Assembly (NCBI GenBank): GCA_008632985.1
Contig: QPGO01000059.1
Coordinates: 186,001 to 250,000 of the forward strand
DNA from: Psammoneis japonica
Taxonomy: Eukaryota
Reading direction: 5' to 3'
DNA length: 64,000 nt
Below the pieces are notes generated by a model. The model searched no databases. It worked only from the letters and a program-made list of their open reading frames with translations, and was not told the DNA's origin. Made by a program: the position numbers and the translations under genes. Below, one piece after another: positions 3,065 through 26,440 of this stretch. Within the stretch, counting starts at the first letter, position 1; each line of letters starts with the position of its first letter.

Positions 3065-3289
3065 AGTGGAACAAAGGATGATATCGTTGCATTGTAGATC
3101 ACAATGTTTTACTTCAGAAGAGTTTTATTTTCCTCCATTCACGCTTTTTAGTGCCTCAAAATCTCTAGAGCATGCACGCAGCACGAACGCCACAAGGAAA
3201 CGCTCCCCCGAATGGTTCAGAGAACAACTCATGCACTCGATTCTCATTTATGGTTCCCTAAATTGCTCAAGACGGTAGCGCTAGGACTC

Positions 3290-3910
3290 TGGGTAGGCTG
3301 TGGGAAAATATCAATATCCGACTTTACCTTGGGAGGCTTCCAACCGAACTTGACCCACAGATCAATCAAGGAAAGACTGACATTGTCGGTATCACCTATG
3401 CTGTTTCCTTCTGAGACACTGATAAGCTGCGCAATTGAGCTGCCACTTGTTCCTGGACACGAGAAGAACCTTTCTTCTCATTCCTTTTCGAACAACAACA
3501 CCAATTACAGGCTTGAACTCTCCTCCATTCCGACAGTGGAACTAGACGACATGCTTGACTATTTTCCGAAGCACGAGTTCGTAGTTAACAAGTGATGACA
3601 ACATCAAAAATGCAGTGAAACGTATGAGTGTACGACTTCGACGCTTCAATGACATCTCGTACTCGACGCAAGCGACCCAGCAAAATTGCGGAAGCACAAT
3701 TGTTGCCTGCGGAAGCATGTTGATTGAGAAACGCCGTGGTCGCCGCATCGATCTTTTTCCCGGACGAACAGGCACATGCGAGGTTTCCTTTAGCCCCAAG
3801 CCCACATTCTCCGTTTGGTCACTGTCAACGGGAGTCGCCATGTTGTCATTTGGCGCATTGGTCTTTGCCATGTGTTGTAATTTTCACGGAAAGTGCTGGC
3901 AGTTGCAGCT
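3290..3910 (+). pseudogene. Decayed gene of unknown function, copy A (copies B about 19310-19930, C about 27150-27840)
   Basis: Homologous sequence follows each Kunitz gene. Reading frames are broken at different points in each copy. Shared peptides KR.SVR.RRFNDISYSTQATQ..CG.TIV.CGS.L.EKRR and a C-terminal hydrophobic segment. Confidence 0.5.
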
Positions 3911-6900
3911 GTTGTACTCTAGGATCGCTCTCGATCGTCATCGTGTTAAAAAAAGTGAGTGGGTGGTGGATGCTCTTTGAGATGACCAAGAAGTTTTAGC
4001 AAGAACCTGGCGGTGTTCGACACCATGATTCCTTGGTTCATTTGCATCCATCAAGCTCCCAGAATTTGCCTGTGCAAAAAAAAAAAGCACAATCTGTTGA
4101 TGCTTGTGTTGAAGACACGGCAATCAGGTGCCATGCTGCCATTTTGTTGGTTGCTGCACATGCCAGAGTCTTGGCCTTGTCTTCAATTTCAAGACCAAGA
4201 CTGTCATGTGGGATGATGTTGCTGTCCCCCACACATCCAGAAGGATTGCAGAACCAGCATGAAACCAAAAGGATTGTTGGACCAGCGTGAAACCTCAAAT
4301 GTTGAACTCACCAACAGGGCTTAGCCTGTTTCTGTGCTGGTGCTGGCTGCCCCACATTGACAGACTTGTGCCATTTCAAGCAATGAACATGACAAGCACA
4401 ACTGTCAGAAGTTGGCATTGGGGTGCAATCATTTGTCTGAGAGTCAAAAAGATGACCCATTGGAGCCATTTGGTCAGCACCCCTGGCCCTCCAACTGAAC
4501 TGTGAGTCAAGCCTTGTTGTGCCAAAGCACACACCACACCTCAAGTTCTTTGTCCTGTTGCAAGGAAAGAAGTTGATGAGCTTGAAAACATTGGAGTCAT
4601 TGCTCAAGATGCCACTTCCAAGTGGGGCGCACCTTTTTTTGTTCTGACCAAAGAAAATTGCAGAGTTCATTTCTCAACCAACTTGCGGCACCTCAACTCA
4701 TGTCTCACATGCCATCATTGCCCAATGCCAAGCCCCAACAATGTGATTTGGAAGATCAACAGGCTCACATGCACCACCTGCTTTGATCTGAACCACAGCC
4801 ATTGCTGTTGACTGTGAGCTGAGCAAGCTTTGATCTGTCATCTTGCTGAGGGGCAAGAAGTGTTGCTGCCTTTGTCTCCCACAAGGAGCCATGCCTTCAA
4901 GCAAGAAAATCTTTCAAGCTTTCATGAACCAACACTGCTTCAGCAACTTGGGAGACACTGCTGCTTTCTTTGACAACATCCTTTTGTTTGCAAAGTCTCA
5001 ACCTTTGTTCAGCACCTTCAACAAATCAAGGTCAATCTTCAATGGCTGGGCACTGGACACTGGAGACAAGAACAACCTTTGAGCGCACATTGAAAGAACT
5101 TTTTTCACTGCTCCTGAGGTTGACTTCTTGGGTCATCATGTCACAAGGAAGGGATTCACACCTCAGAAGCAAAAGACTGTTCCTGTGCTTTGTTCTGCAT
5201 CTCTAAAAAACAGAAACCAGCTCAGATCATTCAAAGGATTTGTGGATTTCTACAAAAAATTTTGGCGCCTCTTGCAAGCTGCGTTGTCTCTCCCCAGATC
5301 AAGCTTCCATGAACTGAGGTTGAAGAACAAGCCTTCCAAGCCATTGAGAAAGGCATTGCTTGCGCCAGACATTCTTGTTGCATTTTCCAGATTTAAACAA
5401 GACTTTTTTTTCTTTCCAGTGTGTGCAACTGTCAACTTGTTGGCACCATCTTGACCCAGGTGCTTTTCAATGGCAAGTGGTCCATTGCATTCCACAGCTG
5501 CAAGTCACAGCTGTCTCAAGTGCAGTGCAGCTGTGCGCCAATGTGGGGAAGGAGCTGCTGCCTGCCATTAAGACAATGAATGCTTTTTTTCTCATGGCAT
5601 TTCACTTGGACACCAGCAAGGGCATGTCACGAATGACCACGAAAACTTGACCTTCAACAAGCTCAAGTCACAGAGCATGTCAAACATTGGCGCCCATTGT
5701 TGGAAGAGTGTGGCTGTGCTTTTGAACATCATCCTGGCAAGGACAACACCACTGCCAACTTTTTGAGAGCCATCGTCTGAGATGACCAATGTCTGCCAAC
5801 ATCTTTGAAGAAGCCGTGACTTTGGAGTTCAACTGAAAATGAGTTTCCAGTCACCTGTGACTGTGCTGCAGAGCATCAAGAAGCTGCTGGCAAGTCTCTT
5901 CAGCTCAGCAAGAAAGCCTCTTCCATGCGTGCAAACCACAAGTTTCAAAAACATCAAACCGCTCTGTTGAGTGACAAGATTGTCCTTCTGTTTGCTTTGT
6001 CTCTGGCTGTGTTGTTGCGTTGGCATCACAATTCTTTCTGCAATTTTAGAGCCAGCTGCACCCACACTGCTCTTGCTCCCCACTTCTGCACTTGGAATGT
6101 GCAAGAGCTGGTCCACCGTTTTGTCCATGAGCACCAGATTTGTCAGAAACAGAAATGCACCATGAAAAAGTGTGGCAAACAGCTGCCACCAGATGTCACA
6201 CATGAGCCATGGCAAGTTGTGCAAGCCAATCTCTTTGGCCCCTGGACATTTGCTGACATTGGTGGCATTGTCCAGTTTGTCAAGGCCATCTCTGTGATCG
6301 ACGTCGCCGATGCTTGCTGGGGATCTCAAACTGTCATCACACAGCTCCAAAACCTCCATGAGCCAAAAACATCTCATTGACCACAGATTGTGCATGGTTC
6401 TGTCATCATCTGTGATCTGAGTCAGTTGTTTGTGACAACAGATTGGAGCTCATGTGCTTGAGTTCACAGACCAGCTCAACAGAGGTGGGAAGTTGAGCTC
6501 CCAAGCCAGCAACAATTGAGAGTCCTCAAGCCAGTGCAGTTGTTGAGCACATCCACCAAGTCATCAGCAACTCCACACAATCAACAGACATTGGCTCTCA
6601 ACCTTTTGATTGCTCAACTGTTGACAGCATGCTTCAACCCGTGGTGCTGGCTCTCTGCGTGCTGGTGCTTTTGCCAGCACAATGCAGCCTTTGTGCCAGC
6701 CCCTCTGCTCACATCAGAGTGCACAATGTCACAACATCTGCATGTGTGATAAAAACACATTGCCACATTGTAAAACCCACTTGTCTGCACATGACGGTTT
6801 TTGTCATTTAGCCAATCATTGGTCTCCTGCTGTTCTTCATGTTTGAACACAGATGTTTTTTAATTTTTGTGCTCTGCCTTTTTCGCAACAACTGACAATC

Positions 6901-7554
6901 TTTAATGACAAGCCAAACATTGCAATTGCGTGCAATGCAATTTTCATCATGTAAAGTGTGCGCCAATCATTTGGTCAATGATTGTGCTCCAATTTGCCTG
7001 GTCGTCCGCATCGTCCTCTTCATTCCATGTGTCTTGTCTGCTCTCTTGCAAGAATTTCAAATGTGCCACTGCCGCGTTGGATGTTTCCTTTTCACCGTTC
7101 CAAAAAAGCCACACTGCATGTCTTGCATTTGGGTGAACATCATCGAGAGGAAGAGGTCCCTTGAAACGCCGAATTGCATCGCTGCTCCCCTCTTGATGTC
7201 GTGTCGTTGGCTTCTTTTTCTCTTTCTTCATTTTGCCCATCCTGTTTTTCTCTTCCTTCTTCATCTTGATGCCACCTGTTTTCACCGTCTCTGGCGTCTT
7301 TCCATCCGAATCATTCTTTTTCATCAATCCTGTTGCCGTCGCCTTCATTGTCTCTTGTTGTTGTTTTTTTTTCTGTTGTGTGTCACTTTGTTTTGGATCC
7401 ATGTTTCTGACTTCTCTCCATGCCATCTCTGCTTCCGAGTGTTTCTTTGTGATTGTTTGCATGCGTCACTTGAAGGCACCCACGTGTTCTTCATGTGCCT
7501 TGACGTGCATGCAGAAATCCATGTTGTTTTCCAGCACATGCACCCTTTCTCCTG

Positions 7555-8619
7555 ATGCTGTTTTGCACAATGTTTTCTTCCATCAATTCTGCACTCCGCA
7601 TTGACCTTTCCCGGTGCAATCTCACGCAGGATTTCCCTGGGAGAAGTTGCACACGCGTCTGGTGGGTTTTTGTGTTTAAAACTCCAAATCCCACCAGGTG
7701 CGCATGTGACTTCTCGCATGCACCACTCTGGCACATTTCTGCAGAAACCAGATTTTTTGGTGTTGGAACAGCAACCATGGCGCCGCGTGACCTGTCGGTC
7801 GCCTCTCTGTTGCAAGACAACAATGATTCCCACCTCGAGGAGGCCGCATTTGAATCTCTCTTTGCCAATGGTTTTGGAGTGATCAATGGCAATGAGCAGA
7901 GCTGTGTCAAAGCGAAAATCGAGACGGTGAAATCCAAGGTTCAGTTCCACCGCGATTCCACTTGTGATCCCTCTCCAAATTGGATCGCGCTTGCCTGTGT
8001 GTGGCAAAAGTCAAAGGGCAGACCTCATTTTTTTGCAGAGCCAATGGCTGTGAACTGCATTGTTGCAAAGGAACTTGGGTGCAAGAGCTTGCTGCACTTT
8101 CTTTCCACAAAAGGATGGAGCCATTCCAGTCAAGGCACCAAACATCCTCATGTGTTGGAGCATCGCCGTGCTCCCAAAGCAGAGGACATGAAAGTCGTCG
8201 GCGACAAGGCAAAATCAACAGACATTGCAACCAACATGATGGCAAAGATTTCCATGTTGTGCAAGCTTCTCCATGATCCTGGATTGTGTGACCCAAAGGG
8301 AGAGCCACTTGTCAAGCACATTGAGCTGAGAAGTTTTGAAGGGAAGGTTTTGCATTGCGCGCAATGCCTTCACATTGGTTTTTTGATTCTTCGTGACAAG
8401 ATTCCACTGCACGCACCTGAAAGGAGTGGTGATTGCGATTGTTGGCTTTGCTCCCTGTTCGGCGAATGTGACGAGACATCGACTTGCATCAATTTTTTGG
8501 AGAATTTCCTGGCTCTTGGTCACTGTGAGATGACCAAAGACGAATGCCCTGTGTCCTTCCCTGAATTCGTAAAGTCGTTGTTCCACCAACACAAAAATTC
8601 TTGGGCAAAGCCCATGTGA
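7555..8619 (+). pseudogene. Cargo ORF of the TIR element, unknown function (TpA-mutated)
   Basis: 354-aa ORF inside the TIRs, with no Tyr and excess Cys/His. The real start is probably the ATG near 7777. Confidence 0.45.
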
Positions 8620-8896
8620 CCAGCGATGCTCGATGTCGAGCGAGAACAAATGCGTGCAACACACGTCAATGAGACTCTTTTAAGATGTGTGAAAATTGAT
8701 CGTGTGGTTTCTGCCGCTGACGATTCTGGCAAAAGCAAGGCCACAAGGGATCATTTTGAGGCTATGTGGAAAGCCAGGCTTCGTGACTTTGCCGCTCAGT
8801 GCAAGAAGAAAGAAGCTGGCAATGCAATTCCATCCATTGCAAAAAATGCTCGGAAACAAAAAAATCCAAATGGCATGAATCCATCACATTGTTTGT

Positions 8897-11800
8897 TTGA
8901 TTGTTTGTCCTCCTCTTCTCATCTCCAATTCTTCCATTCTTCTTGCCACCTTTTTAGCTGCCTCCCTTTGCTCCTCAAGCCCCAGTCTCAAAAACCCCAA
9001 AGATGGCGAACCTTCTGATGTTTCTCAGAACAAATCGCTGATTCTCCAAGATGTGCCGACTCTCAAGGAACAATTTGAATGTTTCCAAACAAAGTGGTCG
9101 ACCCTCGGTGCAACTTGTCAGTCATCTCCTCCTCCGCCAGACAATTTCACAAAAGAAGAGCTTGTGAAAGTGTTTCCTGAACCATCTCCGTTTGCGATTC
9201 CGGGTGAGGTGAAGTCACAACATTCTCACCTTGTTGTCTTTGAGGAAACCCCCATTTCCGGTTCCTTTGAGGGGAGCTGTGTCAAGCACCAGTCATTCCA
9301 CAGCATCTCCGATTTCTGCTTGGTGAATCACCTCCGCAAGTTTGTGCATGGATTTGAAAACGGCGTGGCTCCCAACAATCCGACGCAAGAGTTGATGGTT
9401 GCGATCATTTGCCCAACCCAGTCAACCTCTCACGGACAAGATGCATCAGAAATGCTTTTTTGGATTGCGACTCAGTGTGTCGTCGACACTCCGTGCAGTG
9501 TTGGAACATGGCGAGCCGAACGAAAAAAGGGATGGACCAGAATGCAAGTTGCGCTGTTGGATCTGTTTTGGTTGTTGTGGCCAGAATTACGAAGTCGTGG
9601 ACGGTGAGTTGGCTGAAGCAGGACCTGCTCACAAGCCTGGTGCCATCTTTGGCAGGGACAAGTGGGAGAAGCTTCCAAAGGATGTGCAGCTGATGATGGC
9701 CTCAATCTTGGACGCTGCGCAACTCTGTGAGGACAAAATCAATCTTGTTGCTTTGAAAGAAATGCGTTCCTTCTATGACCCGCACCATGATGGTCTTTTC
9801 GTGGCTGAGCTCTGCAAGATGGTTGGAGCCAAGCATTTTAGAAAGGAAGGCATGGAAATTCAAGAGAAGTGCATCTCGTCGTCCGGCGAAAAATCCGTTA
9901 ATTCGAACACCGAGCTGCACATTGACAAAGAGGATTGTGACATGGATGGGTGCACCAAGACTGGTGCTCCTTGCTTGTCACTGCGAGACGCTGTTGGTCG
10001 CTCTTGGTCGTTGAAGGTTGTCACTGCATCCAAAGGTGATGCTGGAAACTGTGTCAGTTCGGCACATGGGCATGCCGAGCTCCGATCGCGTGTGCATGGT
10101 CATTTTGCAAAACTTGATCTGTCACATGCTGCAGAAATGATGAGACACCGTGGCCCTTGTCGTCCTCCGTCGGGCAAGCTGACCCACAGAAACATCAAAG
10201 ATTTTTTCCTTGACCCTCACTCTGTGTGGGTGGAAGAGGAAATTGGCAAGCCAAATCTTCCGTCTGACACAGTTGAATGTCCCGTTGTTGTCATGCCGAG
10301 GAAACGTCTTCCGTTTCTTGCCATCATGAAGGACTTTAATTTCTCGTGCGGTTGTTTGGCAATCATCGACAACCTTGATGAGGTTGGTGCACACAATTGC
10401 TTTCGTTGCGCCGTTGTGGCTGGGCATCAAACCAGATTCTCCCGTTTTTGCTGCTTGTTGTGCAACACAGATGCTGTGAAGCGTCCTTTTGTGGCTGGCG
10501 ATTGTGTCCTTCATTGCTTCAGAGAAGCTGCAAGGCCATTCAGCAGCATTGCGGGGGATCGCAATGACCGACGCATGCAGAGCCCGGGACTCGATTTCGA
10601 GGAGGTTCATGTGGCAGAGTGCAGGACAAAACTTGACGGTTTGATGGACTTGCTTGTTGGCGGACTGGTTGTCATCATGGGCTGGATCAATGACAATGTT
10701 GGCAAGCCAACGTTTGACCACAAGGTGATCGAGGACATGTTTAAAACCGTGGTCAAAACATGGGATCATGCGGGCGCTGATTGTGGAGAGTTCAGATGCA
10801 TGAACTCTGCACAGGTGTTGATGCTGTGTGGCACAGGGATCCATGCTCACCCTGACCTTCTTAATCTTGTCTGTCCGGCAGCCAAGTTGGGAGCGGTGAA
10901 GCAAATGGAGGAAATGAAGGTCCCGGTGGAGGAGCGCGATTTACTCTTGGAACGGACAGCGGGTGATTTTGATTTGGAAGACTGTGGAAAGAATGGCCCA
11001 GTGTCTTCACTGTGTGACCTGAGTGCAGCTCGTGAAAAGATGGGAATCTGCGATGTCTTTTGTTGTGGACAGCATCCATTGCTCTTGTTCTCTGATGGGC
11101 AATCAATGATCAAGCAGTTTGGAAGGTGTGAATGGGAGCGCCAGCCCCACTCGTGTCGATTGATGAAGTTCGAGCCGAACTGGAACGGCAAAGAGAGGTC
11201 ATTTTTTCATGGCAATCACATTTGTTTTTTGTCTGATTTTGCTGACATTGTCACATTGAATTCTCGTTCTAACAGGAAGAAGGCCGCCGGTGATTTGTTG
11301 TCATTTGCAATGAACAAAAGTGACGATTGCAAGGAGGAGTCAATTGACGAGAACACAAGCGAACTTCCAACTGCTTGCATGGGTGAAGAGGACAAAAGCG
11401 AAGAGCCTGTTGACGATGAGCACAACCAAGTTGCACATTGCTCTGAGGGTGAAGAGGACCACAGCGACTTGGGAGATTGTTTCACAAGTGACAAAACTGA
11501 CGGGGAAACACACGATGCACTGTGGTTGGGGATGACCCGTCCACTCAATGCAAGGCATCTATCTTCTCAAGAATTGTGCTCTGAGAAGGGGGTGGCCTCA
11601 GTGTCACCTGACCAACACAGGCGAGACGAGGCATGCGCAATGGCATTTGAGGAAACTGACAAAACAATCACAAACGTCGTTCCAACAGTTTCTCTCCAAG
11701 ACAGCCATCCTGATCTGCACTTAAATTGCAGTGTGAAAGCAAGAGATTTCGTCAAGAGAGTCAAGCAGCAGTTTGAGAAAATTGTTGATTTTGACAATCA

Positions 11801-12269
11801 TGGGTTCGACCAAATCATGTTGGACTGCTGCTGGATGCCAGATGGAGAGTGGCGCGATTCTCGTTTTGGGACGACTCAATTTTTCCAGAATCCAATTGAT
11901 CTTCGGGCCTTGCTCTCCAAAAACGGAGAAGGGGGGGACACAGTGATTCCCTTTGCTCTTGCAACCTTCTTCCAATTGTCGGCTGTGTTCGACATGTGCA
12001 CAATGGACAATGATGCTGCAAAGAGCCGTGCAAGCACATTCTTTGCAAGTGACCTCATGACCCAAGAACAACTAGAACGGTGGTTGGGAAAGCCTTCCGA
12101 TCAGGAAGAAGCTCATCTTGGAGTTTCAGAAGAAGACATCAGAACGAAAGCAATGGAAGGTGCTCGTGCCGCACTGCTTCACGTGTGCCACAATGACTTT
12201 GCCAATTCTGAAAGGATCAAATTCATCATGTTTGCAAGAAAGAGCCAGGAAATCACTGTGAGTGAATGA
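8897..12269 (+). pseudogene. Large multidomain cargo gene of the TIR element; possible HxD dioxygenase-like region and C-terminal SAM-methyltransferase-like domain
   Basis: Overlapping 236-aa and 956-aa ORFs (probable frameshift at about 9400-9600). Motifs LHIDKED (about 9915), ALWLGM (about 11517) and FDQIMLDCCWMP (11805-11840). Domain calls are by eye only. Confidence 0.45.
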
Positions 12270-12292
12270 CAGATTGATGCGCGCATCCCATT

Positions 12293-15200
12293 TTAGAAAC
12301 AAGTCTGACCAACACTTCCTTCTGTCCTGTGCAGCCCAAACAAATGGGGCCTTTTCTTGCACTTCTGCCACTCCTGGACATTCTTCATAAACCAAAACAT
12401 TGTCCCCAATTGCTTCGATGGGGACAACCCGCAACTCAGGTGAGTGCTGAGTCTTCTCAGGCATTGAGAGCCAGTTGTTTCATTTGTGATCAAGCTGCCA
12501 GCGACTGTCCAAGTCTGTGTGCTGATGCCATTGCCTCACAGTTCTCTGGTCAGCTTGACAAGCAGTTGGATGGACCACTGCAAAAATTGATCCTGGGTCT
12601 TCCTGTTCAAAGAAACACAGCAAACGGGAGGGAAACTGTTGGCTGCCCTTTCGTGTGCCAAAGGTCACATGGGCACAGTCATGCCATGGGCCTTCGCTTT
12701 TGTAATTGGGGTGCGCACGGTGCGCATCCCTTCCGTTTGCATTGTAAAACTCTGTCTTGCAAGTCAGATGTGTGTTTTCATCATCTTCACCAACACAATC
12801 CTCCCACTTTTCTGACATGAAGTTTGGCAACACAGGATGAACTTGGCAACGAGTGTGCAAGCTGTTCCACTCAAACGTCACAGCGCGGATCCCTCAGTTG
12901 CAGGTGAGAGTGAACACACTTCCTCCCAGCGTGTGATTGTCCATCCTGACTCTTGATGTTTCCTTTTTCCCAGTTGGCAAAATCCAACTGTCAGCTGAAA
13001 TTGTGGCGTTGAGCCTCATTTGGTCCTCCGTGCGTGACACGACCTGCTTCAGAAAACTGCCGAGGTTGCATTGTTGTGTGGCAGATGATGGCAGCTTGAA
13101 AAAGTCTTTCAAGAGACACTCCCCCAAGCCTGCGTCAAAGTTCATCGCATGTCGGCAACAATGAAGAAACGCCAGGAGATGGAGTGTTTCATGAAGCTTT
13201 TGAAACTTCCGCCCGCATCCTTCTGTTCGCGGGACGAATTGCACTGTCCGGTCAATGAGGAGACGGATTTTCTTGTTTATTTTCTGAACAGATGAGCTGG
13301 GAGTTGCGCTTGTGATGGGTGGATCGCCTGGCCTGTGCCATGCGTGGAAGACAAGAAGATCCTCGAGCAATTGAATGAATTGCCGGACGCTGCAGTTGAG
13401 TCTTTTTCCCTTGCATTTTTTCTTTTTTTGGTTGTCGTCACCATCCTCTGCCTCGCTCTCCTCTTTCTCATCCTAATTTTCGTCCCAGTCACCCTCTTTG
13501 GACTCCTCCGACCTTTCATCGTCAGAGTCCAAGTGCTCACCAGGTTGGTGGCAACTCTCAAAGTTTGCTTTGGGCATCTTGCGATTCTCTGGAACAATGG
13601 GTTCATCTGCGTCCTCGTCAAGGAAGCATGACTCACATGCGTTTCGTCCCTCGCTGGTTGACAGGAGAAGGTAGAAAACAAAAGCCATTCCAGCCCAGTG
13701 GTGAGAGTTGAGGAAGGTGAGCAACGTTGCTCCTCCTTTGAAGTTTGTTTGCAAAAAGGATGTTTTGCAAGTTGACCGGTGATTGCTGAAAATCCTTTCC
13801 ACTGTGCTGTCCACCTCACTTGCGACCACAGGTGTCATGCTGTCTACAAATGAATTGATCACCCTTTTCAAGGTGCCGTTTTCAAAGAGATGCATCATGT
13901 CGCTTGCTGTTGCAAGGGCAACGCCATGTGGTTGTGCGCCAAAGTCTGCCTCAAAAAGACAGTTGGCAGGTGCGTTGTGTTGCTCAAGGTGATGCAAGAT
14001 GCCCAACCAGTGCTTCCTTTTTCTTGGTCTGATCTGTTGTCATCGTTGGCCTCAGTTTGCACTTGTTGGAGATCCAGTCCTCAGACAAACTCACATTCAA
14101 TCCATGGGTCGTCCAGTTTGTTGAAGCCAGTGAGGCAAAAACGACAGCAATGTTGACGACAGTTGTGACCTCCGCATCGTCCGACAAGACAGTCACCACT
14201 TTTTGCATCTCCCATGATCAGAACGATCAGTGGGATTGCGTGGAGGTGTCGCATCTCATCCCCTCATCGCACGCATGTTTTCATGCCTCCTTTTCTCATG
14301 ACTTCCAAAAGTGGCTCCAAAATGACATGCAAGCAAGTGTGGCAGTCTCTTGACGAGCGTCCCTTCTCCGCCTTGCGATTGTTTGAGAAATTTTTTGCTG
14401 CAGATGACGACATCTTTTCCAAATCAGGGAGATGACCAATTGGTTTCCAGACACTCTTGTCCGACCATTTGTTGAAGGCAACATGCGCAGAGGTCATGAT
14501 CACTGGCACTCCGCAATGTGATCCCATCCCTTGTGTCCCACCAGTCTTGTCGAGGCAAATGACATTGCACTCGAGAAATTGTTTCTCCGGGTCAGTTGTC
14601 CGTTCTTCGTAACTGCGCCTGAACCACTCACCCGCCAAAAGGCACTTGTCATCCTGTCCCTTCGCTTTGCACTTCCCAAAAGGATTGTCTGGATCGGCCA
14701 CATTCTCTCTGCTGCACCACAGGTGAGGATCGAGCAAAAACAGTTCCCAAACCTTTGTGAAATCCCATCTTGGCACTGACACTCGTTTTGGCAAACCGGT
14801 TTTGAAATTTTTGGTTTCTAGAGTGACAGGAATAGACTCGCTGGGTGGAAGAGGGAAATGCTCAGTCAAGGTGCACATCAACTCTTTTCTCCTTGGCAGA
14901 ACTGTGCCAAGCTCAATGTTGCTGTTCCCAGCGTGCCTCTCAATGAAATCAACAATGCAGTTGCACAATTCCAGGGGAGCACCACGTGTGTCCATGAGCT
15001 TCTTGCACAACTCTGCGCAAGCTCCGTCAAGATTTGTCAAAGAGGGAGCAGAAGCCAAGGCCTCTTCTGCAGGAGTGTGATTCCTGATCCCCAAACGTTG
15101 ATCCTCATCGTGAACATCCTCTTCCTCCTCCATTGTCACATCCAACACTGCAGCAAAGGATTGACCACCGCCAACATCCAAATCGTTCATTGCCAAAAGT

Positions 15201-15478
15201 TCAACTCCATGCATGCTGTGGTTTGATGAAATGGAGGACATGTCATCCATTCCATGCGGAGCGTCATCCGGGGAGGGGAACAAGGGGCTGCTGCTCGGAT
15301 CACTCGTTGAAGATCTTGGGAATCTGCTGTGAGCAGATCGCCTCGGATGGGGTTCGTCATCATCAGAGGACGAAGAGGAAGAACCACCACTTTCTTTGGG
15401 TGGCCCCTCCATTGTGGCAGGAATGTCACTTTGATCTGGGATCAGATCTTGGGTTTGCAGCTCTTGGCGTGATTCCAC
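12293..15478 (-). pseudogene. Plavaka-like transposase, broken by stops and frameshifts
   Basis: Collinear motifs ICLDKTG, WKPIGHLPDL, IMGDAKSGD, SDMMHLFENG, FQKLHETLH, NFDAGLGE..LKDFFK and RAHPNYKSEGPWHD. Confidence 0.75.
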
Positions 15479-16259
15479 ATGATGACATCACTCGTGCACA
15501 GTGCGTGATGGCTTGATTCGCACGATCCACAATGCGAACGCACGATCGATTTGATGCGATCCAAATGCGAACGAATGGGGATTTTGGCAAGATTCCCCAT
15601 TTGCACGATCCCACTTTCTCTGCTCTAAACTAGCTCACAATTTTCACAACGACAAAGTCGCAACACATCTTCTTTTTCAGCACCTGGCACATGCATGGGG
15701 CACAGCAATTGGGCAACTGAGTGACTTGTTGGTGAGTGTCTCCAATGGCAGGCCATTCGCAAAAAACTTTTGCCACACCCGGGACAGAGAAGAGGGTTTC
15801 CGTCCATTGTCAATCAGACAATGTTGACAGGGCCTTCATCAAGACTCATGCTTGTCGTCCTTGTCTTGTGGATGAGAAGGGAAAAGAAGAACAACACGCA
15901 AAAAATGGCGGGAAATTGGCAAACATCACATCATCTTCCAGATTTGGATGATTCTTGTGGGCATGACGTGTCTGCATTTTAATTTTTTATCTGGCATTTA
16001 CAATGAATGTTGTGCTTTTTATTTGCTGTCAAAATGCAGGACATCATCTCCGTTGAAATGCAATGACAGCCATGTCAAAAAGCAAGTTGGACTGTTCGTT
16101 GTTGTGTGCAAACACATTTTCAAATTTCAGTGTTGCTGACAACAATTTGTGCAATGTCACAGAGAAAAACAGAGTGGCTGGCTGTCTCAACACGACCCAA
16201 ATGATGGTTGCACTGTTGAACAGCAACACTCCTCTCATCGTTGTCGTGAAAAGATCAAG

Positions 16260-17566
16260 ATGTCGTCTCCAGCACCACCAGCAAAGAAGAGAAAGAAAAA
16301 TGAGACGATCAAGCCAATGAGCCCGAGACTTCAGGCAGTGTTGAAGAGAACAGGTGCGCAGGCAGCGTGTGGTGCATTGAAATCAGAAGAAGAGAAGGTG
16401 GCCCCAGAAATGATCTCTTTCCACAGGTGAAGTTTCTCAGTCCGTCAGAATTGGCAAGCAATGGGAGCGTCTCAATGTTTGTCAAGAAACAGATTGCTGG
16501 TGGCAACATGGACACTTCAAATTGGTCAGGAACTTGGGAGGAATGGGCAAAAAAGGCGGCAAAAAGGCAAGTTGACAATCGCAGAAACACGGTGTGTTCA
16601 GCCATTGGGGCAGAGGCAATGGCCTGCAAGCCAAGTGACCAATGTGTGTGATTCGAGAGTTGTGTGCATCTCACAAGAAGATGACGGTGATGCTTTGTCT
16701 GTGCAGGCGTTGTCACCAAGGAAGAGGGAAAGGAAAAAGAAAAGAAACTCAAGGCGGCAGTCAGGAGGAAAAAGCAAGGCAGGAAAAAGTCAAGCTGTGA
16801 CAAGAATGAAAAGAAAGATGTCCCGTTTGTGCCGACATGGGATCTGTTCAGCCTGGACACTGTCGCCGGTGGCAAACGAAGGAACAAGCAGGCACACAAG
16901 TGGTTCTGTGATCACATCCTGCCTCAAACCAAGCAAAAGCAGGCATGGAGCAGCGCCATCAAAACTGGGAACGCACAGGTCTCACAGTTGTTTGCGGTTG
17001 GTGACGAAGCTTTGGCGCTGTTGGCCATGGAGAATTGTTGGCAGGTGTGGGCATGCAGGAACAAGGAGGAGGCGGTGGAAGAATTGGGTGAGGAAATGGA
17101 GCCCGAAGAAACAAGGCCTGCCCCTCGGTGCACGAAGCCAAAGAAACAACGAGTGTCTTGGGGAGACGACGGAATCAATCGGTTCAACGATTTGTGCAAA
17201 GAGGTGACGAAAGATGGAGACTCCAAGGAGGGTAAGGAGTTTGAAAAGTGGCATGCGGAGATCAAGAAAAGCGAGCACGAGAAGTCCGGAGAAGCAAAAA
17301 AGAAGAAGAAGAAAGCACCGACCGGTGACACGGATGAGGTGAAGGCAATGAACAGCCCAATGGTGGAGAGCAGCAGGGATGACAACAGCAACAACAATGA
17401 GCAGGAGGAAGGCGCAAAAGGCAAAATGAATGATGGAGGAGACGAGTCCGATGGAGACCAGTCCGATGATGATCGTCAGCTTGGTTCAAGAGAGTTGCAG
17501 CAAGAAAATGTGTGCACAGTTGACATGGCACTCGGTCATTGCACTGCAGACGTAACAAGGGATTGA
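16260..17566 (+). pseudogene. Accessory ORF of the TIR element, divergently oriented from the transposase
   Basis: Basic N-terminus (PAKKRKK), motifs GDEALALLAMENCW and SWGDDGINRFNDLCKEV, acidic tail. Split across frames. Confidence 0.55.
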
Positions 17567-18223
17567 CTTGACCGATGAAATGCTTTTCTTGTTTAAAATG
17601 ATGTTTGCGAAAATCAACAAACCAAGGATTGTGTGGCAATGCAATCACGCGTTGGCATGTGGCAACAAGGTGGGGGCAGACACAGCGATGTGGGCGCAGT
17701 GAAAAACAGCACACATGATTCTTGGCAAGTCACTGCAACATTGGTGTGGCAAACTTGCAACCAGAGGTTGGCCTGTCATTGTGTGACAATAATTTTTTGC
17801 AATGTTTCGACAAATTGTCATCATGCAAATCTGCACATTTTTGACATTTCGTGCACTCTGATGCAGCTGGTTTTTGGTCATGACACATCTGGCCAATTGG
17901 AAGTTTGTCAACAAGTGTTGCACTCAAAATGTCCTGTGCAACAACACACATGAAAATGCCGGCCACTTGCCTTGTGGCTGCAAAGCTGGCAACCAAGTTT
18001 GCACAACCACCAAGGACGACGTCCAATGCAAGCAAGTTCTTGAACCCTGAGGAGGGTCCTTTTCACATTGTTCGCAATCATGCCAATGGCACAGTCACCA
18101 TCCAGTGCTCTCCTGACGTTGCTGAATGGATGGACGTCTGTCGACTTCACCCTGTCTTCTATCTGCTGCTCTAGAGCTACCACTAGCTAGAGAGTAGAGA
18201 GCCTGCCCAGTTGGGGAAGCGAG

Positions 18224-18413
18224 TGCCGTGGGGGTGTGTGTGTCTTCTGTGTGCGTGTTCTGTCCGTACGGTCTCTCAAGTGATTTTCAAGAAGATGTTT
18301 CTCCGTGTACACGTGTTTTCAATAAGTCATTTCAATGTAATAAGTAATAAGTCTTTTCAATGACTTATTAATGTATCAGGGTTCGGTTTCTGATCACGTA
18401 AGTACGTTCTACA
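18224..18413 (+). repeat. Putative 3' LTR of Gypsy copy 1
   Basis: Follows GGGGAAGCGAG, starts TG and ends TTCTACA (end approximate). Homologous to 26121-26301. Contains the inverted repeat AATAAGTCATT...AATGACTTATT. Confidence 0.65.
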
Positions 18414-18567
18414 CATGATGTAGCTCTGGAGGTCATCTTCTGTGTCCATCTCGTCTCACAAATCAAATTCGAGCATCTCTAACAATAACAACTCTACATT
18501 ATCAACTATCACTTGGCGCCATTGGGCAGTGTCATAATCGAGTTCTGAGTCATGTGATCAAGAAGCC

Positions 18568-19101
18568 ATGTTATTCAAGCAACTTTTATTGCCACTTCTT
18601 CTAATTTTATTATGGACCCTACCGGTGTCGCTACAAGCTACCATCCGAGCAGTCGCCGAGGCTGACACAACCCAGTGTGAAACTTGTGCTCTGCCCGCCA
18701 ATAGTGGTCGCTGTAGGGCTTATTTTCCGCTGTGGTTCTTTTCCTCGACAACTGGATTGTGTGAATCCTTTGTATATGGCGGATGCGGGGGTAATGACAA
18801 CAAGTACGAAACCAAAGAAGCCTGTGAAAGCAACAATTGTCTAGCATGTCCTGACATTCATTGCATGGTGTGTGCCTTCCCTCCCAAGTCGGGTGATTGT
18901 GAAGCTGCCATTTCCAAATGGTACTACAACCCCAACACGCTTTCCTGTCAGGAGTTTCTCTGGGGCGGGTGCGAAGCGGGGAGCAATGCCAATCGGTTTG
19001 ATTCGCAAGCAGACTGCGAAGCTTTTGGTTGCAGGAGTTGCAATCCAGAGATTCAGTGCTTTTGCACACGGGGACCAATCATCAAAATCCAGTCCATTTA
19101 G
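18568..19101 (+). CDS. Secreted two-domain Kunitz/BPTI protease inhibitor, copy B
   Basis: Signal peptide plus two Kunitz domains; close paralog of copies A and C. Confidence 0.9.
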   Translation: MLFKQLLLPLLLILLWTLPVSLQATIRAVAEADTTQCETCALPANSGRCRAYFPLWFFSSTTGLCESFVYGGCGGNDNKYETKEACESNNCLACPDIHCMVCAFPPKSGDCEAAISKWYYNPNTLSCQEFLWGGCEAGSNANRFDSQADCEAFGCRSCNPEIQCFCTRGPIIKIQSI

Positions 19102-20053
19102 CGTTGCATTGTAGATTACAATCTTTTTAGTTCAGAAGAGTTTTATTTTCCCTTCATGCACCCTTTTTAGTGCCTCAAACACTCAAGAGCATGCAAGTAG
19201 CACGAAAGCAACACGGAAAACTGCCCTTACGCTCCCCTTTATAGTTCAGAGAACAACTCATGCACGGGACTCTTGATAATTCTTCCCCAAAAAGGTCAAG
19301 GCGGTAGCACTAGGACTCTGGGTATGCGGCAAAATACAGTGTAAATATTCGACTTTCCTTGGGAGGCTTCTTCCAACCGAACTTGACGCGCAGAGCAATC
19401 AAGAAAAGATTGACATTGTCGATATCACCCATGCTGTTTCGTTTTGACGCTGATAAGCTGCACGATCGGGCAGCTGCTTGTCCCTGCATACGAGGAGGGC
19501 CTTCTTCCCGTTCCTTGTCGAGCAATAACACCAATTACAGGCTTGACATCCTCTTCATTCCGGACAGTAGACGACATGCTTGACTATTTCCCGAAGCACG
19601 ACTTCGCAGTTTACAAGTGAAGACAATATAAAAAATGTAGTCAAACGTGTGCGTGTACGACCTAGACGCTTCAATGACATCTCGTACTCGACGCAAGCGA
19701 CCCAGGAAAAGTGCGGAGGCACAATTGTTGGCTGCGGAAGCACATTGCTTGAGAAACGCCGTCTCCACCTCGATCGTTTCCCGGACGAATAGGTGCATGC
19801 GAGGTTTCCTTCAGCCCCAAGCCCGTATTCTCCGTTTGGTCACTGTCAGTGGAAGTCGCCATGTTGACATTTGGCGTATTGGTCCTTGCATCGTATTGTG
19901 AATCTTCACAGATAGTGCTGGTAGTGGCTGCTGTCTGTAATATGATCACTCCGGATCCACATCGTGTTAAGAAGTTTTTGCAAGAACCTGGCGGTGTTCG
20001 ACACCATGATTCTCCCGTTCATTTGCATCCATCAAGATTTATCGACCGCTAGA

Positions 20054-20908
20054 CTAAGGTTTACAACGGTTTCTGCGTTTGGACCGTTTTGATGGTCGCT
20101 CCCACCACGCCACGTAGGCACTTGAGGGCTTTGTATACTCCTTTTCTTCAAAGTCGCTGTCGAGTCGTCCCCGTTGACGTGCTTTTAAAAAAAGCGCAAG
20201 TTGCTTCTTTTGTCTCTTGTCCAGACGTGGCGGTCCACGAATCTGGAGTTGGTCACTAGCATCTTGATGGTTGCTACTGCCACCATAGCCTTGGCTGTGC
20301 AAGTTTGACACATAGTCCGCGACAAAAGATGAATCGCTCAGTTCTAACGAAGCGCCGCTGTTGTCTCTCTGAATGAATGCTCGTCTCATGGTCTCTGCCA
20401 AGACTTTTCTATGCCATGTCTGTTCTCGACGGGGATGGTAATGTTGGTGGTCACGTCGGATACGCTGGAACAATTCAACATCGTTTGTCACAATACACAG
20501 GGATGACCACTTTTCATCAGAACAAATTCGACTGGATTCCTTGACAATGACATCGTCAGCCGTTTGACTCAAGCCTGCAAAAACCACGGCCAATTGTGAA
20601 TTGTACACAAACGCTTGTCGCTCCGTCCCGTGATCCAATACCAAAACAATGTTTAAACACTTCGACATGTGCATGGAGAAATCCTTCAACTTGTGAAGCA
20701 GTTGAGCTTGAGACCATTCGAAATTGTTAGCTCCACGAACGTTATTACCGTCAACAAGCAGTACGGAGGGACAACTCTTGTCTGTGTTGTGTTGCTGTAC
20801 CCAATCATGAAAGATTTGGTTGTTTGTCTTTTTTGATGTCTTCATCAAAAGAAGACAAGCACTCTCAACCGTCATTAAAAAGAGCGCAAGAAGAAGTGTC
20901 GTTAGCAT
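20054..20908 (-). CDS. NYN/YacP-like PIN-fold nuclease, internally deleted copy
   Basis: LLVDGNNVRG, LVLDHG, QTADDVIV and IVTNDVEL. Lacks about 70 aa present in the 27934-29037 copy. Confidence 0.7.
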   Translation of the reverse strand: MLTTLLLALFLMTVESACLLLMKTSKKTNNQIFHDWVQQHNTDKSCPSVLLVDGNNVRGANNFEWSQAQLLHKLKDFSMHMSKCLNIVLVLDHGTERQAFVYNSQLAVVFAGLSQTADDVIVKESSRICSDEKWSSLCIVTNDVELFQRIRRDHQHYHPRREQTWHRKVLAETMRRAFIQRDNSGASLELSDSSFVADYVSNLHSQGYGGSSNHQDASDQLQIRGPPRLDKRQKKQLALFLKARQRGRLDSDFEEKEYTKPSSAYVAWWERPSKRSKRRNRCKP

Positions 20909-21067
20909 TGTGAGGAAACAACTGTCCTGTCGGGCGCAAGGAAAGCAGCAGCAGAATGACCGTAACTGTTGCTGCAGTTAAACGCAATGGGAAATGCAGC
21001 AGCAACGGCGAACGCTGGCATGCCATGGCGTTGATGGGCACATCCGCGCTTGATTCCAAAATTGCAA

Positions 21068-22817
21068 TACCCAGGCTATCCAGCAGTTCCTCCCAGCCAG
21101 AAGAAGAAGAGAAAAGGAAAAGAAAGCAAAAAATAGCCATTGATGTAGTTTTGATACGGGGCGCTGTAGTGCCGCAGCACGCAGTGCAGACGGACGCATG
21201 CAGGTGCAGACGCGCCACGTCCCGGCGACAATTACAAGTGGTGGAGGCAGGCCGTTGAGGAACTCGGGAGCGGCAGGCAGGGTGCGTTAGGCACGTCGAA
21301 TTCGGTACGAAGTGTCATGCGTTTATTTATGCACGCAGAAGGATGTGGATCGCCAACGCCTGGAACACAGCACACAGCAGTCAGCACACCTCCATCAGTT
21401 GTTTGCACACCCTTGGAGCTGCACCCAGAATTGGGTGTGTGTTGTGCTCTCCAGAGCAAAGACCAGAGAAGGGCTGTTCATGCGAAAGCCACTGGGCAAG
21501 GACCTGTGAAAATGCAAGGTCCCAGAAAGCTGCGAAGCCTTGACAAGACTCATGAAGGAGAGAAGCGCCACCCATTTCTCTCAGCAACAATGCGCAGAAG
21601 TGTCAACGCAGTGTGCAAACACAAGATTGGGGTGCCCAACCACTGTGCAACCATCCAGCAAAACCAACCATAAAAATGCAACAATTTCGTAAAATCAAAA
21701 ATTTTGATTGGACCAGCACATTGCGCAGAAATCTGCGCACACACGTCACACAACGTCGAATGGATTTCAACCAACAAACCAAGAGTGCGTGAATGCAAAT
21801 GTTGCACAAAACGGAGCAACAGAGAAAAAAATGGATTTGCAACAACAAACAAAGAAGGCAGACGAGCCAAAGAAAACTGAAGAGGACAAGAAAAGGGTGC
21901 AGACAGATGCAGAACTGTTTCAGTCAGCAACGAACAAAGAAGACGGGGAGAAGATTGCGGCGGAAGAAGCAAGAGCGGCGTTCGAGCTTGCTTCAGGAAA
22001 TTGTGATGTCTCTCATCTGCACTTGTGCCAGACAACACGAGAGTGGACGGTTGTCATGTGGAAGCAACGGCTGTGCCCAGGGATGATTCAACCATGGAGG
22101 AGCTAAAGGCAGCGTGGGCGGCAGCACCACCACAGACTGGTGGGAGATTTTTCACCGAGGAGGAGCTGGAAGAAGCAGGAGCAATGGAGCAGGAGAAGGA
22201 GCAAGCAAGGATCCTACGGAACAAGTGTGGACAGAAATGATGGAATGGGTGCAAGTTTCAACCAACCATTCAGCAAAGACAACCGCGTCAGTGCGCAAAT
22301 TTCACACACTCAGACTTTCACTTGAGCCACCGTGGATCGAGCATGGACAGAAACAATGGAATGGGCACAAGCTGCGACCAACTGTTTGGCAAAGACAACC
22401 GCATCAACACGCAAATTTCGCACACTTTCACTTTCACTTGAGCCACCGCACCTCGAATTAGACAACATCAATGTGCACAGATGAACTCGTGAAACCTCAC
22501 AGAAGACAGAACGGTCAGAAGCAAAACAACCAGCACCGTGCACTGCTCTGGCCCCAATGCATGTTAGTCAGGTCACGTGGGTCGCGCAGAAGTGCGCACC
22601 GTGCAGGTGGCACCCTGTTTCGAAAAAACAACCATTGTGTGCTACAATTGGTTTGGACGCCCGGCGCAAAACTCACTTGACAGGTAAAAAAATGCAGCAA
22701 AATGATTGGTGCAAGCAATCATCACGCCTCTGTTTTCTGACAGTGGCGAGCGCGGCAATCCAAAATCTTTTGGTTTCAGACTTCGATGCAGAGAGTTCCA
22801 CCTGAGAGAGGAGGAAC
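21068..22817 (+). mobile_element. Insertion containing a Helitron-like helicase C-terminal fragment
   Basis: Absent from the homologous position in the third repeat unit (about 29200-29210). Encodes NWVCVVLSRAKTREGLFMRKPL, the PIF1-like motif YVxLSR with Y to C. Hairpin GTTCCACCT-GAGAG-AGGAGGAAC at the right end. Confidence 0.6.
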
Positions 22818-24270
22818 CAATTCCTCCAACAACGTTTGACTCGTCCGACTCTGTTCCTGGTTGTGCGGTGCCAAAGCATGTGCACCACATCTCAAGCTCT
22901 TTGTTCTGTTGCAAGGAAAGAAGTCAATGAGCTTGAAAACATTGGAGTCATTGCTTGAGATGCCACTTGCGATTGGCTGGGGTGCCACACCTTGTTTGTT
23001 CCTGCCAAAGAAAAATGGCAGAGCTCAACTTGTGGCACCTCGACTTCTTGTGTCTCACACGACATCCTCCTTGCCCAGCGCCAAACCCTGGTGATGTGTT
23101 TTGGAAGATCAACCTGCTCACATGCACCACTTGCTTTGATCTCAACCATGTCCATTGTTGTTTTGTGCTTGACCACAAGCTGAGCATGCTTTGTTCTGTC
23201 ATCTTGCTGCGGGGCAAGTGTGTTGCCACCTTTCTCTCTCCTCCCACAAGGAGCCATGTCCTTTTGTTTGCAAAACCACAACCTTTGTTTGGCACCTTTG
23301 ATGAATCAAGATCATCAAATGTTGGCACCCATTGCTGTTGGAAGAGCATGGCTGTGCTTTTGAACATTGTCCTGGCAAGGACAGCGCCATTGCCAACTTT
23401 TTGAGCAACCAATGGCACCATGACTGATGTCTCTCTGGCAACAATTTTGAAGAAGCCCCAAACTTTGGAGCTTTCTGAACATCAGTTTCCAGTCATCTGT
23501 GACTGCGCTGCAGAGAGCATCAAGCTGCCAACAAGTCTCCTCAGCTTTGTGAGAAAGCCCTCCATGCACACAAGCCATGAGTTGCAAAAACATCATGTCA
23601 CTCCATGGAGTGACAAGAATGTCCTTCCACTGGCTCCATTTCCAGCTGTGTTGCACTGGCATGACAGCTCTCTCTGCCATTCTGGAGCCAAGAAGAATTG
23701 CACCCACCTTGCTCTTGCCACCCACTTCTGCACTCAGAGTGTGAAAGCAAGAATCCAGTCATCTGTGACTGTGCTGCAAAGAGCCAAGCTGCTGTCAAGT
23801 CTCTTCAACTTTGTGAGAAAGCCCTCCATGTGTGCAAGCCATGAGTTTCAAAACCATCAAATTGCTCTGTGGAATGACAAGATTGTCCTTCCACTGGCTC
23901 TGTTTCCAGCTGTGTTGCACTGGTGCCACAACTCTCTCTGCCATCCTGGAGCCAATGATTGCACCCACCTTGCTCTTGCTGCCCACTTCTGCACTTGGAA
24001 TGTGCAAGAGCTGGTCTGCTGTTTCATCTGCGAGCTCCAGATTTGTCAAAAACAGAAATGCACCATGAAAAAGTGCAGCAGACTGCCGCCACCAGATGTC
24101 ACTCATGAGCTGTGTGGCAAGTCATGTTGTGTGGGCATTGACCACTTCTTTGTCAAGGCTGTCACTGTCATTGGTGTTGGCACCACTCATTGGGGATCAA
24201 ACTCTCATTGCACAGCTCCAAAACCTCGAAGAACATCTCATTGATTGAGGGTCATGCACGGTTTTGTCAT

Positions 24271-24666
24271 GACGGGTTCCAGTCCTAGGTGGGACTTTTT
24301 GTGACATTGGGCCCGTAGAATTCTACGTGCGAGCTCCGTAGTGAAATTATTAAGCAATGAATATATGAATGATCGCCAACAGAAAAAGAGGCAATTTTGC
24401 GAACGTATCTCCTCCTCCACACTTGAAGTACATTCTTTACAGTATGCCCGGGTATATTCTTTAGACATTAAAGAATATACCCAGCGCATTTTTATTGACA
24501 TAAGTGCAGATAACAGAAAGCCTTTGGCTTCGCAAAACAGGCAGTGTGGAACAATTTTTTATAATAGAACACGTAGAAATGTACGTGCGAAACATACGAC
24601 GGATGATAAAACATAATTATGTCACAGTTCAGCAGTACGAGGTCCCACCTAGAGCTGGAACACGTC
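24271..24666 (+). mobile_element. 396-bp MITE, copy A (TpA intact)
   Basis: TIRs GACGGGTTCCAGTCCTAGGTGGGAC and GTCCCACCTAGAGCTGGAACACGTC; 4-bp TSD TCAT/TCAT. Absent from Gypsy copy 1 at about 6405. Confidence 0.9.
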
Positions 24667-24893
24667 TCATCTCATCCACAGCCCAAATCAGTTGTTTGTG
24701 GCAATGGATTGGAGCTCACGTCTGAGTTCACAGACCTGCTCAACAGCCACAGAGTTGAGTCCAAGTGCCTGCAACAATTGATGGCTCAACTGTTGACAGC
24801 ATGCTTCAGCAATCTGTTGCTTGGGCCCTGTGTGCCAGCGTGAAGGCGGTGCACCAGCCATTGTGTCTGCCCCACTGCTCAGCTGGTTGCTTG

Positions 24894-25793
24894 CCAGACT
24901 CAGGCGGTGTGCACAAGAGCAAAAAAGTGCTGTTTTTGCATGAAATGCACAGCCCAAACTTGTGACACAATTGGCTGATGGCAAAAAAGCACAGACAACA
25001 ACATGTCAAGACAGGAAAACATGCAGAGAAAGGTGTTGTGCGTGTGCCTGCATCAGTGTTTCTGAAGATTTATCAGGTTCGTCATTGCGAAATGGTGCCA
25101 CAAGATGAAAGCTCAATTTTTCCTTGAGAGCAACTTGTGCTCACATCCATGCACTTGCACAAAACACACACGAGTGTTCTTTCACACAAATGCGATCATG
25201 CAACATGAATCATGCCAAACAACTCTTGTGACACAGGCTCGCAATTGTGACTCAATGGCTTTGTCTGCATGTGCGTTGAGCAATGAACTGTGTGACAGTC
25301 TGGTCAAGAAAATTGTTGGTGCCACAACGGCGTTAACTTTGGACCCTTTCATGCTGTTTTCTCAATGTCAATGACTGAGAATCCTGCACCAGTCGACAAT
25401 TGGGAAATGGCTCGCGTGACAAAGGAAAAGAGATGGTCTTCCTCAGCATCAAGCCGGGGGCAAAGCAAGGCTGGCTGTTGCCTGTGAAAGCTGCAGTCAC
25501 CATGGTGAAGTGCAAATGTGTGCCACAGACTGCAACAATTGTTTTTCATCATGCACGGCTAATTTGTCAACTGTGTCGAATGACGCGGTCCTCATGGTGC
25601 CCTTCGATTTTTTTATGAGGCCAAAAAGGGGGGCCACCATGGCTGCTGAAAGCCATGGCTGTTTTTGTTTCTGTTTTTCTTGTTCATTGGAGCTGAAGTG
25701 ATGAGCACAATGTTTGCAACTCAAACATTTTTGACATCATGAAAAGCTTTAATTTTTCGCGAAAACGGGCATGTGCGTGCCACCCAAGTCTGG
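24894..25793. mobile_element. About 900-bp non-autonomous TIR element (possibly hAT-derived)
   Basis: Imperfect TIRs CCAGACTCAGGCGGTGTGCACA and TGTGCGTGCCACCCAAGTCTGG interrupt the Gypsy integrase QLVF codons. No clean TSD. Confidence 0.6.
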
Positions 25794-26440
25794 TTTTCAG
25801 TTGTGACATGGTCATTTCCATGACGCATCTGACCAGCTGGAAATTTGTCAACAAGCATTGCACTCAAAATGTCCCATGCAACAATGCGTGTGAAAATGCC
25901 GGCCGCTTGCCCCGTGGCTCTGCAAAGTCGTCGACGAGGTCTGCTCAACCACCCCGCCCAGAGTGTCCAGCCAACGCATGTTGAGCCCTGGGGAGGGTCC
26001 TTTTCACATGATGGTGCAGTCACCATCCAGTGCTCTCCTGATGTTGCTGAACGGACCGACGTCCGTCGACCTCACCCTGTCTTCTAGCCAGAGCCTGCCC
26101 AGTTTAGTTGGAAAAGCGAGTGCCCCGTGGGGGGTGTGTGTCTGTCCGTGTGCGTGTTCTGTCCGTGTTTCCCAGTGATTTTCAGAATGTTTCTCCGTGT
26201 TTTCAATAAGTCATTTGCGTGTAATAAGTCTTTTCAATGACTTATTATGTGTCATGGTTCGGTTTCTGATCACTTCTAAGTAGGCCCTACTACGTTCTAC
26301 ATGAGTCATTCATTCTACGAGACCTGGAGATCGGTCTCACAAATTCGAGCATTTAACAGAACAACTACTACATTATCAGCTATCACTTGGCGCCATTGGG
26401 CAGTGTCACAATCGAGTTCGAATTATGTGATCAAGAAGCC

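Follow-up and report, generated by a model that had tools for sequence, protein, structure and literature searches.

Repeat-induced point mutation (RIP) of ascomycetes changes C to T, creates TpA dinucleotides and stop codons, and senses homology. The closest known case to the process considered here runs the other way and is described in one preprint, on the rhizarian Bigelowiella natans: in two viral inserts, 230 of 231 such mutations are A>G or T>C, all at TpA, TA-depleted windows of the genome are enriched for transposon domains, and ADAT2 is proposed, without a test, as the enzyme (Mettrop et al., bioRxiv 10.64898/2026.01.13.699255). Here we analyze 64,000 nucleotides of the diatom Psammoneis japonica (contig QPGO01000059.1, positions 186,001 to 250,000, forward strand; hereafter "the window"), part of a eukaryotic assembly of 91.4 Mb in 597 contigs (GCA_008632985.1), which carry broken relics of a Ty3/Gypsy-type long terminal repeat (LTR) retrotransposon. 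The named homologues of proteins encoded by this assembly are diatom proteins. In these elements and their relatives, TpA is changed to TpG or CpA on chromosomal DNA, after insertion, on both strands, specifically at TpA, and in patches. We regard this as a variant of a kind of process in print once; a literature search, with subscription journals mostly outside its reach, found no report of it in diatoms.

How does this locus compare with B. natans? As in the main sections of that preprint, A>G and T>C changes are limited to TpA (here 228/942 TA alignment cells against 1/2,906 for AA), affect both strands at the level of DNA, and lie in local domains of foreign or mobile DNA, here with TA at 0–0.1 of expectation over the relics. 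In B. natans the process runs about 1,000-fold above the background rate and is switched on in only some lines. The B. natans changes are de novo mutations in viral inserts, with TpA still present there (Rho 0.45), whereas in the diatom we see near-total loss (again 0–0.1 of expectation) in fixed copies of an LTR retrotransposon and of a small element. A 3' pyrimidine preference, timing by LTR pairs, and the order of TA before CpG loss, all described below, do not figure in the main sections of the preprint.

Which residue did the ancestral element carry? The initial annotation had argued that one integrase codon, resolved as His or Cys in three homologous segments, fixes the ancestor as Tyr and TA, not CG, as the dinucleotide that was hit. 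The codons are present and in register across the three segments:

6021..6029, + strand: segment A, TGG CAT CAC, His where relatives carry Tyr, integrase H2C2 region (sequence and homologues).
23657..23665, + strand: segment B, TGG CAT GAC, His at the same integrase codon (sequence and public-run contig).
23921..23929, + strand: segment C, TGG TGC CAC, Cys at the same integrase codon (sequence and public-run contig).
6165..6176, + strand: KKCG in segment A, where relatives have KxYG, TG state (sequence and homologues).
24068..24079, + strand: KKCS in segment C, TG state, same direction as in A (sequence).

Among 36 outside homologues, the W-x-H position is Tyr in 33, with one His, one Phe, and one Met, and the KxYG position is Tyr in 34, with one Phe and one Lys; neither position has Arg or Cys in any of them. 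Of the residues that in intact relatives would speak against Tyr (Arg, His, or Cys), only that single His occurs. A copy on contig C199 with an open frame reads TGG TAT CAC and KQYG. Judged by these comparisons, Tyr, not Arg, is rightly called the conserved residue at both sites, and since no homologue has Arg, the source dinucleotide at these codons is TA rather than CG. Ordinary decay of methylated CpG could in principle have turned an Arg codon (CGY) into both His and Cys; CpG is nearly erased in the window copies, and DNMT5-dependent CG methylation of diatom transposons has been shown (PMC9998398). We give this source next to no probability: for the two codons it is refuted by the homologues, by TAT in the open-frame copy and TAC in four copies of a sister family, and by a loss of TA about 40-fold above that of CpG in partly hit patches.

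Two details of the annotation needed amending. CAY and TGY are each one transition from TAY, and TA as the source stands, but the third base also separates CAT from TGC, which calls for one or more additional non-TpA transitions; the third base is itself variable, the open-frame copy having TAT and the sister family TAC. KKCG and KKCS exist as read, but KK is specific to an older subfamily, made up of the window copies and three more, the open-frame copy having Gln at that place. Among mapped copies the codon is CAT in A and B and TGC or TGT in C and in the copies on C69, C10, and C111; the 15 young copies of the sister family have TAC (4), TGC (8), CAC (2), and CAT (1). Are these letters reliable? 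One contig from a public DNA run, possibly the source sample itself, spans 22800–24011 with one differing letter and includes the codons of B and C though not 6021; because of this match, assembly artefacts are unlikely at those two codons. Two copies that were assembled separately, on C301 and C297, have the same state at 79/79 TA-derived and 103/103 CG-derived sites. Together with the public-run contig, this concordance marks the letters as fixed mutations, not read errors.

A single codon is weak evidence by itself; the signal sits in the population of sites. The annotation had proposed counting Tyr>Cys/His against Arg>Cys/His replacements, a count that is near saturation in the window copies (37/42 Tyr; 31/46 Arg encoded by CGY) but discriminates strongly in younger ones. 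The copy on C69, 93% identical to that on C199, has 41/48 Tyr and 9/80 Arg replaced, and the 15 young sister copies have 369/781 and 58/1,158 cells replaced, respectively. TA loss comes first and CpG loss after, the latter rising with TA loss across copies. No excess of Tyr>Cys/His appeared in the 36 homologues from other organisms, all of which are called open proteins and so say nothing about how widespread the process is.

How specific are the changes? In the partly hit patches of the 15 copies, where TA changed in 228 of 942 cells, CpG changed in 15/2,414 and the other A contexts in 9/7,457 (AA 1/2,906, CA 3/1,883, GA 5/2,668). Pol eta has the WA motif (W, A or T) as its signature, and an error-prone polymerase of this type, acting in the repair of methyl-CpG mismatches, might explain why CpG loss climbs with TA loss across copies. 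We consider it very improbable and largely refuted: A>G at AA is practically missing where TA changed at 24%, there are next to no transversions, and in the partly hit patches CpG changed too rarely to have seeded those patches.

Context shapes both the rate and the direction of change. Per strand, the rate is 0.25 when TA is followed by C or T, 0.12 before G, and 0.10 before A. With R for purine and Y for pyrimidine, RTAY sites were changed most often and almost evenly (281 to TG, 318 to CA), YTAY sites went mainly to TG (441 against 181), RTAR sites gave 65 and 98, and YTAR sites were most spared (84 changed of 443). The integrase codon is G-TA-T, an RTAY site of the class that resolves about 50:50, so both outcomes, Cys and His, are expected. 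The annotation was right to suppose changes on opposite strands: both TG and CA occur in 169 of the 310 TA columns of the sister copies. The changes are patchy on a scale of 1–3 kb, with patches that differ between copies, and most copies have almost none in their last 1 kb. A TA-empty zone on C199 enters from the flank, spans the 5' LTR, and ends at its inner edge. In-frame stops number only 8, in 5 of the 15 copies. A search for nucleosome-scale or 10-bp periodicity was negative (best power 4.37; null 95% 6.65).

Did the changes occur before or after insertion? Both LTRs of an element are identical at insertion. LTR pairs of about 290–320 nt were found in 16 of the 17 relatives tried (L052 gave no alignment), most with visible short target duplications. 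Across 4,576 aligned nucleotides, these 16 pairs differ by 100 TA/TG or TA/CA differences, 18 CA/TG doubles (8 of them in C69), 10 CpG differences, 6 other transitions, and 7 transversions. The doubles are proper proof of independent, opposite-strand changes of once identical DNA. Once three LTR columns with TA in fewer than four LTRs had been removed, the 15 sister copies (L045–L059; L060–L062 lie outside this alignment) had 59 sites changed in the 5' LTR only, 22 in the 3' LTR only, 17 in both alike, and 9 in both oppositely. The nine copies with fewest LTR changes, a subset picked after the counts were seen, had 35 sites changed in one LTR, 2 oppositely, and none alike.

Editing of the element's RNA before reverse transcription would affect one strand and leave both LTRs alike, and the genome does encode a second A_deamin gene, from a family common to diatoms. 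Within a single element, however, the two LTRs are not alike, both strands are changed in each copy, and the changes also reach flanking DNA and a non-retro element; ADAR editing of retroelement RNA is refuted as the main route and, as an explanation, is barely credible.

The LTRs also yielded two separate observations. Column 232 of the L045–L059 alignment (context CAATATTA) is changed in 14 of 15 5' LTRs (9 CA, 5 TG, 1 misaligned) and in 7 of 15 3' LTRs; this excess and the one-sided bias of 59 against 22 may reflect a promoter-linked hot spot. Shared non-TA variants group the same copies in overlapping sets that shift along the element, which suggests recombination among them.

Do the window segments descend from one insertion, and were they changed before or after it was duplicated? 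The C199 copy has a 1,425-codon open frame between 318-nt LTRs, with reverse transcriptase (RT), RNase H, H2C2, and rve domains, and the open-frame relative L006 has the Pfam order RVT_1 (81–239), RT_RNaseH (302–427), Integrase_H2C2 (518–573), and rve (593–689). This is the Ty3/Gypsy order of RT, RNase H, and integrase, in one frame with an H2C2 zinc domain and an rve core, and the window pieces align to L006. Unlike intact Ty3/Gypsy elements, the window copies are broken relics that keep only 3' LTR remnants, and Pfam found no match in segments A, B, and C themselves. The C199 copy aligns to the window at 4050–6642, 17882–18528, 22884–23263, 23338–23735, 23754–24100, and 25803–26402, which gives four pieces:

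4050..6642, + strand: Gypsy relic 1, covering the RT, RNase H, and integrase region at 68% identity to the C199 open-frame copy (alignment).
17882..18528, + strand: 3' end and LTR remnant of the same family (alignment), probably part of relic 1 and parted from it by about 11 kb of inserted TA-empty DNA.
22884..24100, + strand: Gypsy relic 2, with an internal deletion and a 264-nt tandem duplication (B 23338–23735, C 23754–24100; alignment).
25803..26402, + strand: 3' end and LTR remnant of relic 2 (alignment).

The LTR remnants ending at 18528 and 26402 have an identical right junction followed by the same duplicated host block, so relics 1 and 2 would be one insertion, locally duplicated. Segment A would have parted from B/C by that duplication and B from C by the later 264-nt tandem duplication; distances at quiet sites are 0.09 for B–C, 0.13 for A–B, and 0.14 for A–C.

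At reference-TA sites, polarized against natural copies of another subfamily only, the window paralogues agree at 42 and disagree at 9. Segment A and four unrelated copies agree at 135 and disagree at 93 (P = 0.002 against 42/9), and because the paralogues agree far more than unrelated copies, most TA was erased before the duplications. A mixture estimate leaves 17–34% of TA still open at duplication. Independent changes on opposite strands after duplication, as claimed in the initial annotation, are therefore plausible but fall short of proof for this codon, given agreement at 42 of 51 sites. For the codon alone, TA may instead have become CA before the duplications, and C may later have gone from CA to TG, either because a TA or CG had re-formed at the site or because another copy had converted it. 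Several observations fit this sequence of events besides the many shared changes. A and B both have CAT though B and C are the closer pair, and C differs at the third base too and matches the C111 copy. At reference CA/TG sites, moreover, CA/TG flips amount to 6–9% (19/209 by a loose count, 8/136 by a strict count that requires two more copies to agree). Discordance at TA sites, on the other hand, exceeds the strict background (9/51 against 8/136, P = 0.02; 7/48 and P = 0.07 without the named codon), in tests whose pairs share sequences and hence are not independent, and 3 of 8 TA sites differ between B and C. We judge the early change at this codon rather unlikely; by the mixture estimate, a discordant site in the window paralogues has somewhere between an even and a good chance of reflecting independent changes.

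What does the TpA landscape of the window look like? It is a mosaic: about 29 kb stand at 0–0.1 of expectation, whereas most of the remainder, with aconitase, isocitrate dehydrogenase, and other host genes, stands at 0.3–0.8. A host stretch near 37201–38101 is likewise TA-poor, yet its CpG is kept. The domains and controls are as follows:

3951..18150, no strand: TpA-empty domain around relic 1 (TA profile).
21301..26200, no strand: TpA-empty domain around relic 2, broken by a TA-intact small element (TA profile).
18522..21067, no strand: control, a duplicated host-type block with TA kept (other copies at 2461–4055 and 26396–29205; duplicate comparison).
24271..24666, + strand: high-copy small element with TA intact (32 TA) within the erased domain (sequence; an inverted copy at 59519–59914 has 4 TA).

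The three copies of the host-type block have a weak NYN_YacP match and intact TA while directly adjoining the erased relics. In a non-retro element pair of the window, one copy keeps 24 TA and the other 2, with the same type of change. Like RIP, the process is a dinucleotide-specific transition hypermutation of mobile DNA that affects both strands and can spill into neighboring DNA; unlike RIP, it removes TpA, makes no stops, and spares duplicated host blocks. Fungal RIP was accordingly rejected on two counts: TpA is lost, not raised by C>T, and duplication alone is no trigger, as linked duplicates of 76–97% identity within the window keep TA. The unchanged small inverted-repeat element at 24271–24666, which with its copy at 59519–59914 has a summed contig depth of 10^4–10^5 against about 70, also speaks against a duplication trigger, though timing could explain it too.

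Two further features lie in the TA-empty DNA around relic 1. One is a 957-codon stop-free frame at 9396–12269 with no Pfam match, which may not be a gene, because loss of TAA and TAG favors long open frames; the other is a weak Plavaka transposase match at 14264–15487. Elsewhere in the window, a monomeric isocitrate dehydrogenase (42032–44407) sits beside a bacterial-type aconitase B (38137–40737), with normal TA in both.

What mechanism could produce these patterns? We propose that an old Gypsy-type element inserted with Tyr at its integrase codon, and that local segmental duplication and then the 264-nt tandem duplication gave A, B, and C. The counts above show that after insertion TpA on chromosomal DNA becomes TpG or CpA, an A>G change at the 5'-TA of one strand or the other, with a preference for a following C or T, in patches of roughly 1–3 kb, and far ahead of CpG decay. 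At RTAY the preferred motif lies on both strands, so that direction is nearly even and Tyr goes to Cys or His. Targeting would track silent chromatin domains rather than sequence homology. Adenine would be deaminated to hypoxanthine by a host enzyme of the TadA/ADAT or ADAR fold and fixed as G at replication. No stop codon can arise in this way, so the inactivation of elements would come from accumulated missense changes and from damaged promoters. We think it fairly probable that one Gypsy insertion, duplicated, with post-insertion TpA hypermutation of silent DNA, is the overall explanation, and of the possible chemistries adenine deamination is the likeliest, at about an even chance.

Alternatively, a base mark at TpA on silent DNA (an oxidized thymine such as 5-hydroxymethyluracil, or methylated adenine) might miscode and so produce T>C or A>G. 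Such a mark would have a parallel in CpG decay and would suit palindromic, strand-independent, domain-limited changes without strand runs, and 5-hydroxymethyluracil is known in dinoflagellate DNA (PMC11071213). A Tet_JBP search of the genome gave no match, but its control was silent too, so absence is not established. A point against the mark is that the preference for a 3' pyrimidine reads from the A side. We hold a base mark to be improbable.

Adenine deamination has parallels in TadA/ADAT2 and adenine base editors, in their A>G outcome and TA preference. Wild-type TadA modifies UACG, which resembles TAY, and evolved forms prefer TA (PMC12265680), while TadA7.10 and 8e are described as editing A in any context with a slight bias only (PMC10085711). 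The natural substrate of TadA/ADAT2 is tRNA.

The genome encodes TadA-like (C38), ADAT2-like (C26), dCMP-deaminase, RibD-like, and other deaminase genes, under names assigned in part from motifs and so presumptive. Two A_deamin genes stand out:

L078:503-2216 (contig C79): A_deamin gene (Pfam A_deamin), of a stand-alone family shared by many diatoms, a candidate enzyme.
L077:1112-2649 (contig C40): A_deamin gene (Pfam A_deamin).

The gene on C79 has 270 homologues, of which those with names come from both centric and pennate diatoms, and A_deamin is the sole domain among the 120 homologues listed; a literature search on this stand-alone family found no papers. For this second A_deamin family, a protein atlas holds generic A_deamin clusters only. 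Also on C79 (L067:313-1785), a zinc deaminase domain is fused in frame to a 2-oxoglutarate-Fe(II) dioxygenase, in a protein that probably serves small-molecule metabolism.

Several points weigh against TpA-targeted deamination of chromosomal DNA as we propose it. Deaminase genes like those in this genome are common or universal, and none is tied to the process; the context use of evolved TadA is far looser than what we see here. Strand-coordinated runs, a possible trace of a processive single-strand deaminase, were not found (of 263 pairs of neighboring changes, 149 shared a strand, against 136 expected; z = 1.6, 1.1, and −0.4 at three distances). Sister copies agree in direction 3,226 times against 2,826 under a four-class context model, an excess for which finer context or shared descent could account. 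Over all 15 copies, LTR sites changed alike outnumber those changed oppositely (17 against 9).

What would these findings mean? The integrase codon is a clean illustration and no new evidence of its kind. LTR-based ages are inflated, as 118 of the 141 LTR differences are TA/TG, TA/CA, or CA/TG, and the loss of TAA and TAG yields long false open reading frames. More broadly, targeted A>G change is seen here on transposons of a second lineage of the stramenopiles, alveolates, and rhizarians (SAR), with LTR-pair timing and a sequence motif. We tentatively suggest, while thinking it somewhat less than probable, that diatoms defend themselves against transposons with a natural DNA adenine base editor, in which a host deaminase (ADAT2-like or the conserved stand-alone A_deamin) would be drawn to silent chromatin and convert 5'-TAY to TGY on double-stranded DNA. 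Such a system would run opposite to RIP and, since a rhizarian would share it, could be old in SAR, and the search for its enzyme becomes testable in transformable diatoms.

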